The notes under the pieces are model-generated. The model saw only the letters and a program-made list of their open reading frames with translations. It had not been told where the DNA came from and made no database searches. This document shows positions 4,736 to 13,280 of a DNA stretch of 39,474 nucleotides, piece by piece. Position numbers and translations under genes: made by a program. This stretch comes from Candidatus Woesearchaeota archaeon (GTDB lineage Archaea; Nanobdellota; Nanobdellia; Pacearchaeales; GW2011-AR1), in the NCBI GenBank assembly GCA_964611235.1, contig CAZSWH010000001.1, forward strand, positions 1 to 39,474, read 5' to 3'. Positions within the stretch are counted from its first letter, which is position 1. Every line of letters starts with the position of its first letter.

Positions 4736-6016
4736 TTATTCCCTCAATCTATCTGAAAATTCGCCTGAAATATTTTCAAGCATTTTTTCTCTGATTTTTA
4801 TTTTGTCTTTTGCCCACGCCTTATGACCGAGAACCCAAGCAAGTTTTACAAAAGCAGTTTCTGGGAGAATATCCTCAAGAAAGATTATTCCTGTTTTCTT
4901 CAATTCTCTCCCAGCCGAATAAATATTAGGATTTAATCTCCCATAAATCGTTTGTGGAGCCGCACAGAGCGTCATTCCGTTTTCAATTGCTTTTCTAATT
5001 TTAGGAAGCCAATTAAATTTTGATTCCCCAGACGGAACCTGTCCAATCCCTGTGATTTCAAAAACAATCCCTAAATATTTTTCTTTTTTATAATATTCAA
5101 TTATTGCGGGGTCTTGCCCAGGGTAAATTTTAATAAGGGCTACCTTTTCAGAATATTTAGGGTCAAAATTTATTTTTGTATCATTTCTTCTTGCATTAAA
5201 GCTTTTTAAAATTCTAAAATTATCTTTGGAGATCTCTGAAAAAGGTTCGCTATTAATAATTTTAAAAGCGTCTCTTCTTGAAGTGTGCATTTTTCGGACT
5301 TTCGTGCCAGGCATCGCGAGACAATATTTGTCATTTAAATCTTTATGCCCAATTAGTGATATTTCTGCAATATCTGAAACAGCGTATTTTGCAGAGCAAA
5401 TTAAATTCAAAGCAGCGTCGGTAGAACCCCTATCTATTGAACGCTGAGAATATGTTAAAGCGATGGGTTTATTTATTTTCTGAAGGAAAAATGAAAGTGC
5501 TGAAGAGGTATAATGCAAAAAGTCTGTTCCATGAGTTATTATTATTCCATCCACATTCTTTTCCTTAAGGAGAGATTTACAAACCTCTGCGATTTTTTTC
5601 CAATCTGAAAAAGACATATTTTCAGACCATTTCATAAATGGCTTTTCAATCCTTACAATATTGCATATATCTTTTATTTCAGGAGCAATATTAAATATTT
5701 CTTCTGCATCTGTTGATATGACTCCCCCTGTTTTTGGGTCAAGCCTTGAAGAAATTGTTCCACCAGTAATTATTATTGCAACATTTCTTAATTTCTCGTT
5801 TTCCTTTAATTCAATTTTTTTCTTTTCCTTCGGCTTTGGGATCTCAACAATCTCAGCGCCCAGAATTTCTGACTCACGAATTCCGATATTATATCCTGAA
5901 TTAAGTTTTAAAAGAATTATTTCTGGGGTGTAACTTTCTAAAATAGCTCCAGAGAACTGTCTTTCTCTTGTCTTGATGATAACCTTGTCTCCTATATTAA
6001 ATTCTTTAATTTTCAT
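4736..6016 (-). CDS. gatD: Glu-tRNA(Gln) amidotransferase subunit D
   Basis: 426 aa. An N-terminal extension precedes an asparaginase-type core with the IIITGGTISS and ITHGTDFLHYT motifs. Confidence 0.88.
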   Translation of the reverse strand: MKIKEFNIGDKVIIKTRERQFSGAILESYTPEIILLKLNSGYNIGIRESEILGAEIVEIPKPKEKKKIELKENEKLRNVAIIITGGTISSRLDPKTGGVISTDAEEIFNIAPEIKDICNIVRIEKPFMKWSENMSFSDWKKIAEVCKSLLKEKNVDGIIITHGTDFLHYTSSALSFFLQKINKPIALTYSQRSIDRGSTDAALNLICSAKYAVSDIAEISLIGHKDLNDKYCLAMPGTKVRKMHTSRRDAFKIINSEPFSEISKDNFRILKSFNARRNDTKINFDPKYSEKVALIKIYPGQDPAIIEYYKKEKYLGIVFEITGIGQVPSGESKFNWLPKIRKAIENGMTLCAAPQTIYGRLNPNIYSAGRELKKTGIIFLEDILPETAFVKLAWVLGHKAWAKDKIKIREKMLENISGEFSDRLRE

Positions 6017-7752: not shown

Positions 7753-8022
7753 ATGAAATTTGAATTGGAAGATTTAGAAAAAGATTATGAGATTAATTTT
7801 GAGGAAATTGTTGAGAAAATAAAAAGCTCAGGGGCTAAATCTGTTTTGCTTCAGTTTCCCGACGGATTAAAACCATGGGCAGTTCCTATTGTAGAATTTC
7901 TTGAAAGAAAAACGAATACTCATATAAAAATTTGGCTTGGCTCGTGTTTCGGTTCTTGTGATATCCCAAAATCTGACTACGACTTGCTCGTTCAGTTCGG
8001 GCACGCAGAATGGAATGGTTAA
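7753..8022 (+). pseudogene. dph2: truncated diphthamide synthase Dph2 (N-terminal 89 codons only)
   Basis: VLLQFPDGLK, GSCFGSCD and LVQFGHA match the N-terminal part of archaeal Dph2. The ORF stops right after GHAEWNG, and no continuation is visible in any frame of the next 225 nt. Confidence 0.7.
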
Positions 8023-8061
8023 ATAAACTTTTTTAATTTCAACTAAAACTATTTCAACACA

Positions 8062-8086
8062 TTGCTCGCCAGAAATCGAACCGAGG
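8062..8086 (-). other. degenerate tRNA T-arm/acceptor fragment
   Basis: 8067..8082 (CGCCAGAAATCGAACC) matches tRNA-Ser 12800..12815 (CGCCAGGAATCGAACC) at 15/16 positions. The T-stem cannot pair and there is no 5' half. Confidence 0.5.
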
Positions 8087-8112
8087 TTTAATTCTTTATT
8101 TCGTGACCTTAG

Positions 8113-8123
8113 ACGCCCACGCC
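8113..8123 (-). repeat. 11-nt copy of the tRNA-Ser 3' acceptor end (att-like direct repeat)
   Basis: ACGCCCACGCC is identical to, and in the same orientation as, 12793..12803. That site comprises the first nt past the tRNA 3' end, the discriminator, the 3' acceptor strand and the first 2 nt of the T-stem of the intact tRNA-Ser gene. Confidence 0.6.
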
Positions 8124-8247
8124 GTACAGTTAGAAAAGGTTTAACGCCCTTTATTTTATCTTAACTCATTAAAGTAATCTGACTTTTTAAAATGAGACCG
8201 CTACTTGATTAGTAAAGAAGAGAAAAATTTTTTAAAGTTGTTCTATA

Positions 8248-8838
8248 TTAAAAGAAAAGATCTTTCTTTTGATATTTTTTTGTACTTTCTAAAAAATAAG
8301 CTATTTTAAATTTTAAAATATCATTCCAATAGATATTTTCTACTCTACAAACACCAAATTTATTCAATATTCCTTTAGTAAAGGTCGGAGGGACCCGAAT
8401 TACTATATTTTTTGTAATATTAATTTCAATTAACTCCCACAATTTAGTTAGATTTGGGGTGGTAAATTCTGGTCCTTTGGCATAAGTTCCATCCGAAGTA
8501 GTCCAACTTGGATCAAGAATTGCTACTTCTGCTTTAATTTTTTTAAGAAGTTGTTTGTTCAGAACATCCCCCAAGATAAATTGGGTCTTGTTTTCTATAT
8601 TATACATTTTAGCATTATTTTTAGCAGATATTATTTTTTTATTATTAATATCTATTCCATAAACTTTAGGGATTATTTTAGCCAATTGTATTGAAATGGT
8701 ACCAACCCCACAACAAAGTTCTACTGTATTATTAAATTTTCTTAATTGCTTAGCAATATGATGTGCAATTGGCTCAGGAGTGCTTATCTTTTTAGCTTCT
8801 GGATTAATTTCTATTGGTTTAGAAATTTTTAGACCCAT
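8248..8838 (-). CDS. class I SAM-dependent methyltransferase, exocyclic-amine (Tgs1/RsmD/Trm11-like) type
   Basis: Motif I is VELCCGVGTISIQLA, followed by VYGIDIN and NAKMYNI..K..FILGDV, with motif IV as AILDPSW (a variant of (D/N/S)PP(Y/F/W)). The start overlaps the stop of the 1235-aa gene by 10 nt. Confidence 0.75.
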   Translation of the reverse strand: MGLKISKPIEINPEAKKISTPEPIAHHIAKQLRKFNNTVELCCGVGTISIQLAKIIPKVYGIDINNKKIISAKNNAKMYNIENKTQFILGDVLNKQLLKKIKAEVAILDPSWTTSDGTYAKGPEFTTPNLTKLWELIEINITKNIVIRVPPTFTKGILNKFGVCRVENIYWNDILKFKIAYFLESTKKYQKKDLFF

Positions 8839-11800
8839 CTCAATTTCAAAATATCCTCTTTATTACCAATAATATCCCTAAATTGATTAAGTATTTTTTT
8901 GTCAAAGTCAAGTGAATAAATTCCTAAAAATGCAACATCAAGAGGTTTGTTGCTTTCTATTACTTTAGTTCTTACTTCCCAGTATCCCCTAAACCTTCTT
9001 TTGTATGAATTGAAATAAATGATTCTTAAAATCCCTACAATATCTTGGGCTAAAGCCTTTTCAGACTCATAAAACCATGCTGGATCTATAATCTTTATAG
9101 GGTCTTTATCATTTAATATTATGTTGTTTATGTTTAGGTCCCCATGTCCAAAACCTTCTTTATAACATTTAACAAGCTTTGAAAAAATATTTTTCAATAC
9201 TTTTGTTTCTAAATTAATCTTTGATTCCCTTAATACGTTTCCTTTAGCGTATTCTATAATATTTGCACAAAGATTTTTATCATAACCCAAATAGTTAGAA
9301 AAGAGGTTACTCACCTTAAAAAGTTTAGTTCCTAAAACATTTTCGCTTAAAAAATCCATGAGCCCGACTTTTACACATATTTTTGTTCCATTTCTAGAAA
9401 CACCATAAACAACAGAAAAGTTACCCTCTCCAGATATTTCTTCAACAACATATTCTTTATCAAATAAAATTATTTTTTGCCCAAGATATAATTCTTTATA
9501 AGAAGTAAAATTTGGCTCTGGAAAGATTGAAGAAAAGCGGGTGTATAATCTAATAAGATCTTGGGGGATTACCACCCCCCACTCTCCTGCTGAAAAAAGA
9601 ATTTTAGCTCCGATAATGTCCATTACTTTTTTTCTCATAAAACAAAAAATAATTCCATCTAACTCTCCAAGATACGTAACAAATTTATTTTTGGAAAAAA
9701 CAAAGGTAGAAGATCCTTTAAAAATTACATTTGATTTTTGAGAACCTCTTAAAAGTTCTTGGTAGCTCTCCTTTCTTCTATAATCTATTTTAGAGATTAA
9801 ACCAAAAGTGTCTTGCAATTTATTTAAAATATCTTTATTAGTGTGAAAGAAGTTTTTTAGTTCATTAGCTTTTTTAAGCAGATTTCTTTTTAATTGTCTG
9901 GTTATATAAGATTTGTTAATCTCCTTTAAAGCAAGAGATTCCAAATTTAGATTTTGAGGAAACTTTAAATTAATATTATGCTTTTTAGTAAATTCTAGAA
10001 TATCTTTAGCTTTAAGATTCTGAAAGTTTACCTCTGATAAAAAAATCTGGCAATCATTTTTTTGTTTTTTAGGGCCATTAAGCAAACCCCCAATTCTTGC
10101 AAAAATAAGATATAATATCTTTTCATCTATACTTCTGATCAGTTTTTTTGGAATCATATTTTCAAGATTTTCTTTAAAGAGGCTAAGGTTATAAATTTTA
10201 CAAATAGTGTCTATCAAGAACTCATTTGAAATGGTTTTTTTACTTGTTGTAATTTTTTCAAAAATATTTGATGGAAAACCATTATTACTGAAAACTATAT
10301 CAGTAAAAAGATTGTACCTAGAATGGTTGGTTAAAGGACTAAAATTTAAAAATTTTCTTTCTTTATCAAATTTGTCTTGATTTTGAAATACTAAGAGTCT
10401 ACAAAGATGGATAATTTTATTTTTAGAAGAGTCACAATTATCTTCTTCTTTATTCACTTGTTTTCTTGCCATTTTATAAACTTCTTTTATTATTTCATTA
10501 TTTTTCTGGATAAAGTTTCTTAAAAAATTATAAGCTTCCATAGTAACAAGATTACTATTTGATTTAAGGGATTTAAACAAAGTGGAAATATGTGGATTTT
10601 TATGTAATTTTTTTAAATATTTATAAGGACCTCTAGAAAAAATATTATTTCCAAAGCAAGTAGCTAATCTCTTTTTGATATTAGAAAGATTAATCCCTTC
10701 CAAATAGAAGTTTAAAGGTACAAACCACCCATGTTGGGGGCGACGCGTATCCCATAAAAGATATAATTTAGGATAGTTGTAATATACAATTCCTAAGTTC
10801 ATTAGAAGCTCTATTTGATTTAAAACTTTAGTTGACTCTTTTCTATTAGTATAAATATTTATCTCTGGAGCAGTTCCAAAAGGAGCAAATTTTTCTAAAA
10901 TAGCCTCCATCTTGTAAAAGAAATCCAAACTAGGCATTAAAGCAGATTTATTTTTGAAGATTACTTTTAATTCCTTTACCAAGAAATCTTTCAATCCAAT
11001 TTGGTTAAAGTTGGGGCTTAAGTTTCCCATAATTACTTTTAATTTTAATCTACTCTCATATCTCTCAAAATTTTTATTATCTGAAGGTCGTATTTCTGGA
11101 ATATTTTTATTAACAATCCCCCTAGAAATTATTTCAATTACATTGCCGTTCGGTTTAGATTTAACCTCTAGAGGTCTCTGATGAGGTTCTTTGATTGCAA
11201 GATTATTTCTGTTAAGAACAGAGCACAATCCTCTTATTACTTTTTCCTTCCTTTTATTGCTAATATTTCTATCTTGAAATAAAATCCTCATATTATCAAT
11301 ATCACTTGATTTTCTATGTAAAGCAGTCTTATAAAAAAAGGAACATGGCTTTGCCCATAGTGATATACTTTCTCTCAGATTTGCGTCTAACCCATCTAAA
11401 AATTCTTGTAATTCATCTATAATCTTTTTTTGATCTAACCATATTAGAGATTTGATTTTTGGAGCGATTTCAGAGTATTTTATTTCATATACTCTGTCTG
11501 GTAAAAAAATTCCAGCATTATCAAAATATTCTATAAATTGTTTATTTATTTGAAAAATTAGTCTTAATAGCTTAGATTCATTATCAAATTTGTCATAAAA
11601 TTCTCCAAATATATAATAATTATCAGAAAATCTTTCTTTTCTAGAAAAAAGATAATTTAATTGTTTATTCTTCGAAATAAGAATTTCAAGATATTTAATT
11701 AATTCTCCATAAAATAAGGAATCTCCAAAAAAGGAAAGATCATTAGAAAGAGAACTTCTAAAAAGAGGTGTTTGCCCATGGAATTTCTTGGAGAATAGAC

Positions 11801-12536
11801 TAAAAACTAATTTTCCTTTTAAAGCCATATAATGTGAGAGGCCACAATCAACACCAAAATATAACTGATATTGATTAATTGTTTTTATAGCTTCCTTTAG
11901 AGAATATGTGAACTTACACTTGACAAAAGGACAATTTTTTAATATAAATTCATTGATTTTATTTTTAGAGTTCTTTTGGCAAATTAATTTGATTTTAAAT
12001 CTATTAAGATCTAAAAATTCTAGAGATTTTTTAATTTCTTCTAAATTTATATCAAGCCTTTCTTCATTATTTTCTCCAACATTAAAATTGAGAATAGCAT
12101 TTTTCTTGGAAAGATTTAACTTTGGAACTTTTTGTGGAAGATAAACAAAACCAAGAAAGTTAGTTATTTCTTCTACTCTTTCTTCCTCAAAAAGAGAAGA
12201 AAATTTTCTCTCTCTATTAAAATCTTTAAACTTTATAAAAACTACTTCCTTATTCTTACTATTTCTGTAGATTTCTATAATATCACCATTAATTTTTGGT
12301 GAAGGAAGATCCTTACGTGTTAATAAGATCTTTAGACTCTTTTTACTTGAAGAACCTCTCTTCATAAAAGGAAGAAGAAGGAAATCCTCGTTTCCTTTAA
12401 AATAAATTTTCTTTCCAAATTTATGATGAATAGAGTTTATTAGGGGTAATTTAAATATCCAATCTCCTAATTTATTTGTTGATTCAACAATTTCAATAGA
12501 ATCATATTTTGATAACCAATTGTTCTTATTAAGCAT
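8829..12536 (-). CDS. 1235-aa multidomain protein: N-terminal GT9 (heptosyltransferase)-like domain, about 770 aa of unknown function, C-terminal Kdo/WaaP/RIO/Bud32-like kinase domain
   Basis: N-terminus: LGDWIFKLPLINSIHHKF and (aa 211-250) YSLKEAIKTINQYQLYFGVDCGLSHYMALKGKLVFSLFS resemble the GT9 signature. C-terminus (from aa 1032): G-loop GEGNFSVVYG, ICVKV lysine strand, catalytic GHGDLNINNIIL, then IKIIDPAW. No motif was recognised in aa 260-1030. Confidence 0.8.
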   Translation of the reverse strand: MLNKNNWLSKYDSIEIVESTNKLGDWIFKLPLINSIHHKFGKKIYFKGNEDFLLLPFMKRGSSSKKSLKILLTRKDLPSPKINGDIIEIYRNSKNKEVVFIKFKDFNRERKFSSLFEEERVEEITNFLGFVYLPQKVPKLNLSKKNAILNFNVGENNEERLDINLEEIKKSLEFLDLNRFKIKLICQKNSKNKINEFILKNCPFVKCKFTYSLKEAIKTINQYQLYFGVDCGLSHYMALKGKLVFSLFSKKFHGQTPLFRSSLSNDLSFFGDSLFYGELIKYLEILISKNKQLNYLFSRKERFSDNYYIFGEFYDKFDNESKLLRLIFQINKQFIEYFDNAGIFLPDRVYEIKYSEIAPKIKSLIWLDQKKIIDELQEFLDGLDANLRESISLWAKPCSFFYKTALHRKSSDIDNMRILFQDRNISNKRKEKVIRGLCSVLNRNNLAIKEPHQRPLEVKSKPNGNVIEIISRGIVNKNIPEIRPSDNKNFERYESRLKLKVIMGNLSPNFNQIGLKDFLVKELKVIFKNKSALMPSLDFFYKMEAILEKFAPFGTAPEINIYTNRKESTKVLNQIELLMNLGIVYYNYPKLYLLWDTRRPQHGWFVPLNFYLEGINLSNIKKRLATCFGNNIFSRGPYKYLKKLHKNPHISTLFKSLKSNSNLVTMEAYNFLRNFIQKNNEIIKEVYKMARKQVNKEEDNCDSSKNKIIHLCRLLVFQNQDKFDKERKFLNFSPLTNHSRYNLFTDIVFSNNGFPSNIFEKITTSKKTISNEFLIDTICKIYNLSLFKENLENMIPKKLIRSIDEKILYLIFARIGGLLNGPKKQKNDCQIFLSEVNFQNLKAKDILEFTKKHNINLKFPQNLNLESLALKEINKSYITRQLKRNLLKKANELKNFFHTNKDILNKLQDTFGLISKIDYRRKESYQELLRGSQKSNVIFKGSSTFVFSKNKFVTYLGELDGIIFCFMRKKVMDIIGAKILFSAGEWGVVIPQDLIRLYTRFSSIFPEPNFTSYKELYLGQKIILFDKEYVVEEISGEGNFSVVYGVSRNGTKICVKVGLMDFLSENVLGTKLFKVSNLFSNYLGYDKNLCANIIEYAKGNVLRESKINLETKVLKNIFSKLVKCYKEGFGHGDLNINNIILNDKDPIKIIDPAWFYESEKALAQDIVGILRIIYFNSYKRRFRGYWEVRTKVIESNKPLDVAFLGIYSLDFDKKILNQFRDIIGNKEDILKLRWV

Positions 12537-12793
12537 GCAAATTTAATTCTCAAATAGTTTTTAAGTATTTCTTTATTATTTTAGCCAAGATTTAATACAT
12601 TATTTGGGCGTTGGATAGAAAGTTTGGTGCCCTTATTCTTTAATTCTTAATGACATACTTAAAGTGATATATTAATAAGTTGTTATAGGTACCGTTTAAA
12701 CCCCTTATTTGCTAATCTATTTTTTTATTTCTCTTGTTGAGCAGGTTTTTGATATTTAAACCCGCCTTAAAGAGCATTACGCATTGTTTGAAA

Positions 12794-12874
12794 CGCCCAC
12801 GCCAGGAATCGAACCTGGGCGCCCCGAAGGGCCGAGATTTCCAGTCTCGTGCAATACCACTATGCGACATGGGC
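12794..12874 (-). tRNA. tRNA-Ser (anticodon GGA)
   Basis: The minus strand folds as GCCCATG TC GCA-TAGTGGTAT-TGC A CGAGA-CTGGAAA-TCTCG GCCCTTCGGGGCGC CCAGG-TTCGATT-CCTGG CGTGGGC G. It has a 7-bp acceptor stem, a long variable arm (GCCC/GGGC stem) and no encoded CCA. Confidence 0.9.
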
Positions 12875-12971: not shown

Positions 12972-13280
12972 TTAATCAACCATCTCAATTTTTATTTTAA
13001 CTGTTCTCGGTATGGAAATTCGCATTATGTTATGGAGAATTTTATCATTGGAAGGAAGGTCTATTATTCTTTTATGAATTCGCATTTCAAACCTATCAAA
13101 AGTAGCTGTTCCGTCTCCGCAAGGAGATTTTCTTGTCGTCACTTTAAGTTTTTTAGTCGGCAAAGGAATCGGACCAGAAATAGGAATCCCTGCTCCGCTG
13201 GAAATAATCTTTATTTTATCGACTACATCATTTAATTTATCAATTTCTACACTTTGTAATTTAATCCTTACTTTGCTCAT
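12972..13280 (-). CDS. rps10: 30S ribosomal protein S10 (uS10)
   Basis: 102 aa. RIKL.S...D.L......I, GPIPLPTKKLKVTTRKSPCGDGT.TFDRFEMRIHKRIIDL is a typical archaeal uS10. Confidence 0.92.
   Translation of the reverse strand: MSKVRIKLQSVEIDKLNDVVDKIKIISSGAGIPISGPIPLPTKKLKVTTRKSPCGDGTATFDRFEMRIHKRIIDLPSNDKILHNIMRISIPRTVKIKIEMVD

Follow-up and report, generated by a model that had tools for sequence, protein, structure and literature searches.

An integrase-free two-gene island inserted at the 3′ end of a tRNA-Ser gene in a Pacearchaeota chromosome

The locus and the island

The DNA considered here is a stretch of 39,474 nucleotides (positions 1 to 39,474 of the forward strand of contig CAZSWH010000001.1, assembly GCA_964611235.1), referred to below in its full length as the window. 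It is a chromosomal segment of a member of the Pacearchaeota (DPANN), with approximately 30.7% guanine plus cytosine (GC), and the reference genomes nearest to it are metagenome-assembled genomes of Pacearchaeota and Woesearchaeota. The only real RNA gene of the window is a tRNA-Ser(GGA) on the minus strand (12794..12874; found by ARAGORN and scored at 57 bits by the Rfam model), which is intact and has its 3′ end facing a 4,669-bp segment (8124..12792, minus strand; 4,680 bp including one copy of a flanking repeat) that is absent from relatives. This segment, the island, is the subject of the present analysis. Its surroundings are conserved: on the right, the gene for ribosomal protein S10 (12972..13280, minus strand) precedes the tRNA-Ser, an order kept in relatives, and on the left lies a gene for a stand-alone protein of 89 residues, equivalent to the Dph2 N-terminal domain by itself (mini-Dph2; 7753..8022, plus strand).

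Between the tRNA and two tRNA-like fragments at the far end, the island encodes only a 196-residue S-adenosylmethionine (SAM)-dependent methyltransferase (8248..8838, minus strand) and a multidomain protein of 1,235 residues (8829..12536, minus strand), as had been stated in an earlier note on this DNA that was made from the letters alone. The two genes overlap by 10 nucleotides, are co-oriented with S10 and the tRNA, and form one operon in which the methyltransferase gene is second. The non-coding DNA inside the island amounts to 124 bp and 256 bp, one stretch at each end. The insert begins one nucleotide past the discriminator, leaving the tRNA complete.

In composition the island hardly stands out. 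It is, narrowly, the stretch of its length (4.67 kb) with the lowest GC content in the window (27.1%), and it has the highest tetranucleotide deviation among such stretches (a distance of 0.0224, against 0.0207 for the next peak). In 1-kb windows, GC content is 26–28% inside the island and 30–32% at 6.5–7.5 kb and 15.5–16.5 kb, and GC content at third codon positions in both island genes (18–20%) falls within the native range of 13–38%. The earlier note had described an AT-richer island, and this part stands; the contrast, however, is about 4 percentage points and not the 10–15 implied there, with flanks at 30–32% rather than 37–42%.

The direct repeat and the tRNA-Ser fragments

The island is bounded by an exact 11-bp direct repeat, ACGCCCACGCC, which occurs exactly twice in the window, at 8113..8123 and 12793..12803, on the same (minus) strand. 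The proximal copy lies within and just beyond the 3′ end of the intact tRNA and spans two T-stem nucleotides, the seven-nucleotide 3′ acceptor strand, the discriminator and one flanking nucleotide. The distal copy is thus a displaced version of the last 10 nucleotides of tRNA-Ser plus one flanking nucleotide, and forms an attR-like junction. Dinucleotide shuffles gave a chance expectation of 0.03 matches with one mismatch permitted. Homology around the 11-mer stops sharply, the neighbouring heptamers matching at 1/7 and 2/7 positions, and such abrupt ends are those of a recombination core rather than of a long repeat in decay.

A second fragment, fragment B (CGCCAGAAATCGAACC, 8067–8082), matches the junction of the T-arm and acceptor stem of the tRNA at 15/16 positions, with 0.08 matches expected from shuffles when up to three mismatches are permitted. 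It is preceded, in the sense of the tRNA, by an antisense T-arm-like sequence, AGAATTAAACC, and the two pair as a hairpin. Neither fragment (8067–8082 or 8113–8123) was detected as a tRNA by the Rfam model, even at E≤10. Smith–Waterman comparison of the two intergenic regions under flat scoring ranked AT-rich chance matches equal to the real GC-rich ones, and shuffle tests were used instead. Position, orientation and tRNA parts of the repeat, its uniqueness, the 15/16 match and the inability of the fragments to be tRNAs all agree with the earlier note, and shuffling now gives the two matches the measured significance that it had left to be determined, both lying far above chance.

A 9-mer, GCCCACGCC, has a third copy at 4812–4820 inside gatD, where, by eye, it corresponds to Ala-Trp-Ala codons of this minus-strand gene. 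Its flanks have no tRNA similarity, and this copy was judged coincidental.

The uninterrupted site in relatives

Relatives of the locus were collected in metagenomes by anchoring on S10 and by anchoring on the mini-dph2 family. The closest of them, L173, has a mini-Dph2 with 71% amino acid identity to that of the window, an S10 gene and a tRNA with 88% and 95% nucleotide identity, respectively, and presents the same neighbourhood of mini-dph2, tRNA-Ser and S10 without the island. Window positions 8050–8112 are 79–81% identical to the 60 nucleotides directly 3′ of the L173 tRNA (42/53 for 8053–8112), and the homologous L173 flank includes fragment B and the 30-nucleotide spacer. In L173 the 11-mer is the 3′ end of its own tRNA, and the window tRNA body aligns with it at 56/60 positions. 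The island DNA just inside the repeats (from 8124, and up to 12792) aligns nowhere in L173. Since the junctions are contiguous in L173 and the inner ends of the island do not align, 8124–12792 was inserted at the tRNA 3′ end with duplication of 11 bp, and 8050..8112 (minus strand) is the old 3′ flank of tRNA-Ser, moved by the insertion and still holding fragment B. An empty site of the window would read …CCTTAG-ACGCCCACGCC-AGGAATCGAACC…, and the circle junction of an excised island would read …TTGTTTGAA-ACGCCCACGCC-GTACAGTTAG….

Because fragment B occupies the equivalent place in L173, it is older than the island, and is the scar of an earlier event rather than a second attachment (att) site of the island. 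The earlier note had taken the two fragments as a sign of more than one event, in agreement with this result. It had also proposed looking for an empty site in relatives, and L173 provides one, with homology ending precisely at the repeat at either junction; the form foreseen, an intact dph2 next to tRNA-Ser, was wrong, the short dph2 being the normal gene.

In L173, an additional 1.2 kb (10279–11440) lies between the old tRNA flank and mini-dph2, with ORFs (open reading frames) of 52 and 307 residues that have no Pfam match; a 9-nucleotide copy of the tRNA end, GTGGGCGTA, adjoins them. The site has therefore been altered more than once.

In many relatives (ten besides the window) mini-dph2 lies next to S10/tRNA-Ser and converges with it, with other genes or none between them. 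The DNA that separates them is variable, 1.5–9 kb, and never contains the island genes: neither gene was found at the site in approximately 90 relatives anchored on S10 or mini-dph2, L173 and L174 included. The island itself is present in eight contigs of the same population at 99.8–99.9% identity, and in the same-population contigs L081 and L082 the repeats are spaced by 4,680 bp as in the window; the contigs with identical S10 all belong to this population and are all occupied. At the GatB-anchored loci of 80 reference genomes synteny breaks off at gatB, and no empty site was found there.

The cargo operon

The methyltransferase resembles Tgs1, the cap guanine-N2 methyltransferase (PF09445, 4.5e-14), and matches the human TGS1 structures 3egi and 3gdh at 1e-16. 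For the 1,235-residue protein, single-sequence and profile searches against the PDB gave nothing usable, and the assignment came from fold comparison alone. An AlphaFold2 model of residues 1–880 (predicted local distance difference test score, pLDDT, of 82) places a putative GT-B fold of the GT9 heptosyltransferase type in the N-terminal ~300 residues, with Foldseek matches to WaaC and TibC. The WaaC match has an E-value of 4e-5 and a template-modelling (TM) score to the target of 0.56, and PF01075 scores 16 bits, under its threshold of 22. Residues 330–880 form a conserved module without assignment in which the motif RRPQHGW is nearly invariant. The C-terminal ~250 residues are protein-kinase-like, with weak matches to Bud32, Kdo-kinase and Pkinase families.

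The family of the large protein is very small, with 18 members in 1.84 billion representative proteins and almost none in archaea. Several of its members occur in company with the same partners. In P0132 (L182, 10001–14347) a methyltransferase domain is fused to a full-length homologue of the large protein, and in L184 (1587–5512) a methyltransferase gene lies upstream of, and overlaps, a large-protein homologue, with a NUDIX gene adjoining. NUDIX hydrolase genes also neighbour the large-protein homologues of L091 and L092. On an archaeal contig, L178, a methyltransferase homologue with 50% identity directly follows a gene for an APH-type kinase. Fusion and gene order show that the methyltransferase and the large protein are functionally linked, and the recurrent association of large-protein homologues with methyltransferase and NUDIX genes suggests a conserved multi-enzyme pathway. 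The cargo would probably act in modification of glycans or of the cell surface.

At least two contigs of the large-protein family are bacterial: L182, which carries P0132, encodes sigma-70, DnaG, RecA/RecX and FtsK, and L092 carries GreA. It is plausible that the cargo was acquired horizontally from the bacterial gene pool. The nearest homologues of the methyltransferase, at 50% identity, are archaeal, and the cargo may therefore be mosaic.

Origin of the insertion

The reading that we consider probable is that a tRNA-targeting integrase placed the 4,669-bp segment in the 3′ end of tRNA-Ser(GGA), and that the segment is now an islet without one. The island is best read as what remains of a tRNA-targeting integrative element that lacks its integrase, or as a non-autonomous form of one. 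In the most likely course of events, site-specific recombination by such an integrase, provided in trans or deleted later, would have crossed over within the 11-bp stretch, which afterwards stood at both junctions. The tRNA stayed intact, with its original 3′ end and old flank displaced by 4.7 kb, and an operon that probably encodes sugar- or surface-modifying enzymes would have been gained horizontally; the islet left behind would then have been fixed in the population. Integration into a tRNA 3′ end with an attL/attR-like footprint had been proposed in the earlier note, and is now supported by the empty site of L173, by the exact direct repeat and by a geometry of the classical type, with the tRNA 3′ end towards the insert, repeats in direct orientation and a regenerated tRNA gene. 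The event is of an ordinary type, and its documentation is unusually good thanks to a close relative with an uninterrupted site.

Several observations weigh against this reading. The repeat is short, 11 bp, compared with approximately 44 bp in PYG1, an example from the Thermococcales (PMC9897764). Both island ORFs lack integrase and transposase domains in Pfam and NCBIfam, and no recombinase, transposase or Cas1 was found with Pfam in any ORF tested across the 39-kb window; with residues 1–880 of the large protein not having a recombinase fold, the earlier statement that no integrase is left holds. Nor are there fragments of a split integrase of the SSV type at the ends of the insert, where the DNA (124 bp and 256 bp) is non-coding. 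The predicted attP junction has no match among viral contigs, no excised circular form was found, and the viral contigs contain no copy of the tRNA-Ser 3′ end; no homologue of either island gene was found in them. The compositional evidence for foreign origin is weak. Finally, the archaeal affinity of the nearest methyltransferase homologues counts against a wholly bacterial source, as does the fact that L184, L185 and L091 have no domain-specific markers, so that not all of the ~900-residue homologues can be placed as bacterial.

Of the alternatives, insertion of a transposon, a casposon or a miniature inverted-repeat transposable element (MITE), with the 11-bp repeat as a target-site duplication from staggered cuts, survives best, and we regard it as unlikely. 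It would account for short direct repeats and sharp ends, and the many small tRNA-adjacent inserts in relatives, in which 9 to 24 nucleotides of the tRNA end are duplicated, would suit target duplication. Terminal inverted repeats, however, were looked for at 8124 and 12792 and none were found, neither a transposase nor Cas1 is encoded in the island or the window, and a duplication of 11 bp fits neither the common insertion sequence (IS) families nor casposons, which duplicate 14–15 bp of target.

It is less probable still that the island is ancestral and was lost precisely, in L173 and others, through recombination between the 11-bp repeats. L173 lacks exactly the sequence between the repeats, as precise excision would leave it. 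Against this stand the absence of both genes from the site in all of the ~90 anchored relatives and a large protein with almost no archaeal relatives; even then, the segment would be a discrete element bounded by att sites.

That the repeats are coincidental, and the genes native to a variable intergenic region and swapped by homologous recombination through its conserved flanks, is very improbable. The region from S10 to mini-dph2 does differ in nearly all relatives, and the composition of the island is hardly deviant, but the chance expectations are 0.03 and 0.08, an 11-bp duplication is not a product of homologous exchange, and homology with L173 ends precisely where the repeat lies at either junction, an alignment by which coincidence is already contradicted.

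Least credible is that the fragments at 8067–8123 are a decayed tRNA-Ser(AGA) paralogue with native genes in between, for which it can be said that S10, tRNA-Ser(GGA) and tRNA-Ser(AGA) often stand in series in relatives (the tRNAs being 40 bp to 2.2 kb apart), but which is ruled out by the L173 alignment, in which the 11-mer is the end of the GGA gene itself, and by the CTGGCG variant of the window tRNA-Ser(GGA): both fragments carry it (relatives read CTGGTG at all but three loci) rather than the GGGGTG/GGGGTA of the AGA gene, and hence derive from the GGA gene, and they are not arranged in the order that a tRNA would have.

Neighbouring genes and the mini-Dph2 family

The housekeeping genes of the window include those for PGK, GAPDH, GatD, a GatB/E-type subunit, S10, HisRS and a P-type ATPase, as well as a type IV pilus locus. 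ARAGORN also reported a 96-nucleotide tRNA-Leu(TAA) (9693–9788, minus strand) inside the 1,235-residue ORF, which is a false positive, the Rfam tRNA model being silent even at E≤10. Many relatives have a second tRNA-Ser, mostly adjoining tRNA-Ser(GGA), with the anticodon AGA and thus A34 (L093, L094, L095, L098, L102, L105, L111, L112, L116, L117, L120, L123 and L133). tRNAs with an unmodified A34 are unusual for Archaea.

The left-hand neighbour of the island had been described in the earlier note as a truncated dph2, and this description does not hold. The 89-residue ORF (TIGR00322) covers only positions 1–56 of the 302 of PF01866, but it is a full-length member of a stand-alone short family. 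Among 5.8 billion proteins it has 530 relatives, the best 120 of which are all 81–104 residues long, and every mini-dph2 in the syntenic relatives examined (at least eight) encodes 86–114 residues. With orthologues of 81–114 residues throughout, the ORF is not shorter than its relatives, and a dph2 pseudogene was rejected. Syntenic short orthologues are present in L127, L141, L146, L148, L154, L157, L166, L169, L173 and L174, and the family also occurs in L177 and comprises P0004–P0123, with members from Pacearchaeota and Nanoarchaeota. No further part of Dph2 is encoded near mini-dph2 genes. Mini-Dph2 could be the product of a gene that has been split, or a domain that has taken on a new role; literature searches found no published description of the family.

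Units flanking tRNA genes

In the fetched loci of related genomes, approximately 20% of tRNA genes, for Ser, Arg, Gln, Trp and Asn, are followed by units of 45–135 nucleotides. A copy of the tRNA's own sequence from T-loop to 3′ end, 10–24 nucleotides long, lies within 60–270 nucleotides after 9 of the 44 genes for tRNA-Ser and 11 of the 58 for other tRNAs. The units have a common layout, in that each opens with the cognate T-arm copied in antisense and closes with a 9–24-nucleotide duplicate of the tRNA 3′ end. Examples are found at L007 (14394–14485), L105 (4810–5133), L133 (14044–14141), L116 (14814–14890) and L102 (10826–10924), and further units in L008, L019, L021, L028, L035, L040, L042, L058, L065, L095, L101, L117, L123, L168 and L173. 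L105 has three units in tandem, and in L102 the unit is mirrored at the 5′ end of the tRNA, a form to which L111 gives a weaker match.

Orthologous tRNA-Arg genes of identical sequence carry a unit in L007 and L008 and none in L002, and homologous unit bodies accompany tRNAs of different types (L007 Arg with L105 and L133 Ser; the Asn unit of L177 resembles the Ser unit of L095 by eye only). One subfamily adopts a four-way junction fold with 10 covarying pairs among five copies, and a covariance model built on it matches tRNA-adjacent sites only. This model matches neither fragment B with its spacer in the window nor the 118-nucleotide unit of L173, both of which have their architecture in common with the tRNA-flanking units. 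An Rfam scan of six relatives placed no known family over the units, and literature searches found no description of such units or of such islands in DPANN.

At the tRNA-Asn(GTT) of L177 (2848–4085), the tRNA is followed by a 1.03-kb insert, a 16-nucleotide copy of the tRNA end, a unit of approximately 100 nucleotides and a 17-nucleotide copy; the insert has a single ORF of 301 residues with no recombinase signal. This is a second case of the architecture seen in the window. Integrase-less cargo that lies between a tRNA and a unit, and has a duplicate of the tRNA end to itself, is thus present in at least two genomes (at tRNA-Ser in the window and at tRNA-Asn in L177), which suggests that tRNA ends are used repeatedly as insertion sites in the clade. 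In L098, L111, L116 and L117, the ORFs that separate the two tRNA-Ser genes include no integrase; they encode a Zot/A32-like ATPase, radical SAM and HEPN proteins and unknowns.

The units may represent a new miniature mobile element directed at tRNA genes, or else a structured RNA, and the machinery that recombines them might take up cargo genes as well, those of bacterial origin among them. That the island is one product of an undescribed, clade-wide insertion system at the tRNA genes of Pacearchaeota and Woesearchaeota is possible, but on balance we think it doubtful.

Significance and comparison with known systems

DPANN genomes are tiny and are thought to have been moulded mainly by loss, and their integrated elements are poorly documented. 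In the present case a gain in a DPANN genome is reconstructed to the base pair through a comparator with an empty site, and points to tRNA 3′ ends as places where foreign operons enter Pacearchaeota genomes. The genes gained come from an enzyme family that is very rare and has been seen elsewhere on bacterial contigs. Two misreadings are also corrected, in that the short dph2 is a conserved mini-gene and one of the tRNA fragments is older and shared. Less expected than the island itself were the units beside tRNA genes and the family of mini-Dph2 proteins.

The enzymes of the cargo resemble several that are well characterised. WaaC and WaaF are GT9 heptosyltransferases of the lipopolysaccharide (LPS) inner core and TibC is a protein heptosyltransferase; the N-terminal domain of the large protein would share their fold according to Foldseek. 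Its kinase-like C-terminus may be related to the sugar kinases WaaP and KdkA, given the weak Kdo-kinase/Bud32 match, and the methyltransferase is close to the Tgs1 cap methyltransferase (1e-16 to human TGS1). Unlike in any of these, the putative activities are fused or linked in one operon together with a 550-residue unassigned module, and in contrast to the hosts of LPS enzymes, the present host, an archaeon, lacks LPS; characterised enzymes show 9–13% sequence identity.

Fragments of tRNA genes beside islands are a standard outcome of integration in Archaea, as exemplified by PYG1 in the tRNA-Gln of Pyrococcus yayanosii and by other Thermococcaceae islands that likewise reside in tRNA genes (PMC9897764). 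The island of the window shares with these an insert between a complete tRNA and a direct partial copy of its 3′ end, a regenerated tRNA and what is probably foreign cargo. It differs in size, with two genes in 4.7 kb and an 11-bp repeat instead of 9–23 kb and a repeat of ~44 bp, in having no integrase, mobility or replication gene, and in its DPANN host.

With regard to integrase-less elements, the closest parallel is with the cis-mobilisable elements (CIMEs) related to ICESt1/St3 of Streptococcus, which are bacterial islets flanked by att sites and demonstrably mobilised by a known resident integrative and conjugative element (ICE). Like these, the island is flanked by att repeats, has no recombination module, and would be either immobile or reliant on an integrase in trans; unlike them, it is archaeal and has no known cognate integrase or parent element. 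In terms of target, it resembles the 3′-end ("asymmetric") sublocation class of tRNA integration sites, reportedly defined by Williams in 2002 (Nucleic Acids Res 30:866, as cited in PMC9897764), in that its identity block spans the 3′ acceptor strand to just beyond the end of the gene; it departs from that class in that, with no integrase present, no integrase subfamily can be assigned. The island thus adds a further case to a well-known type of event, the tRNA-gene island, in a lineage where few have been documented, with an unusual cargo and no mobility gene.

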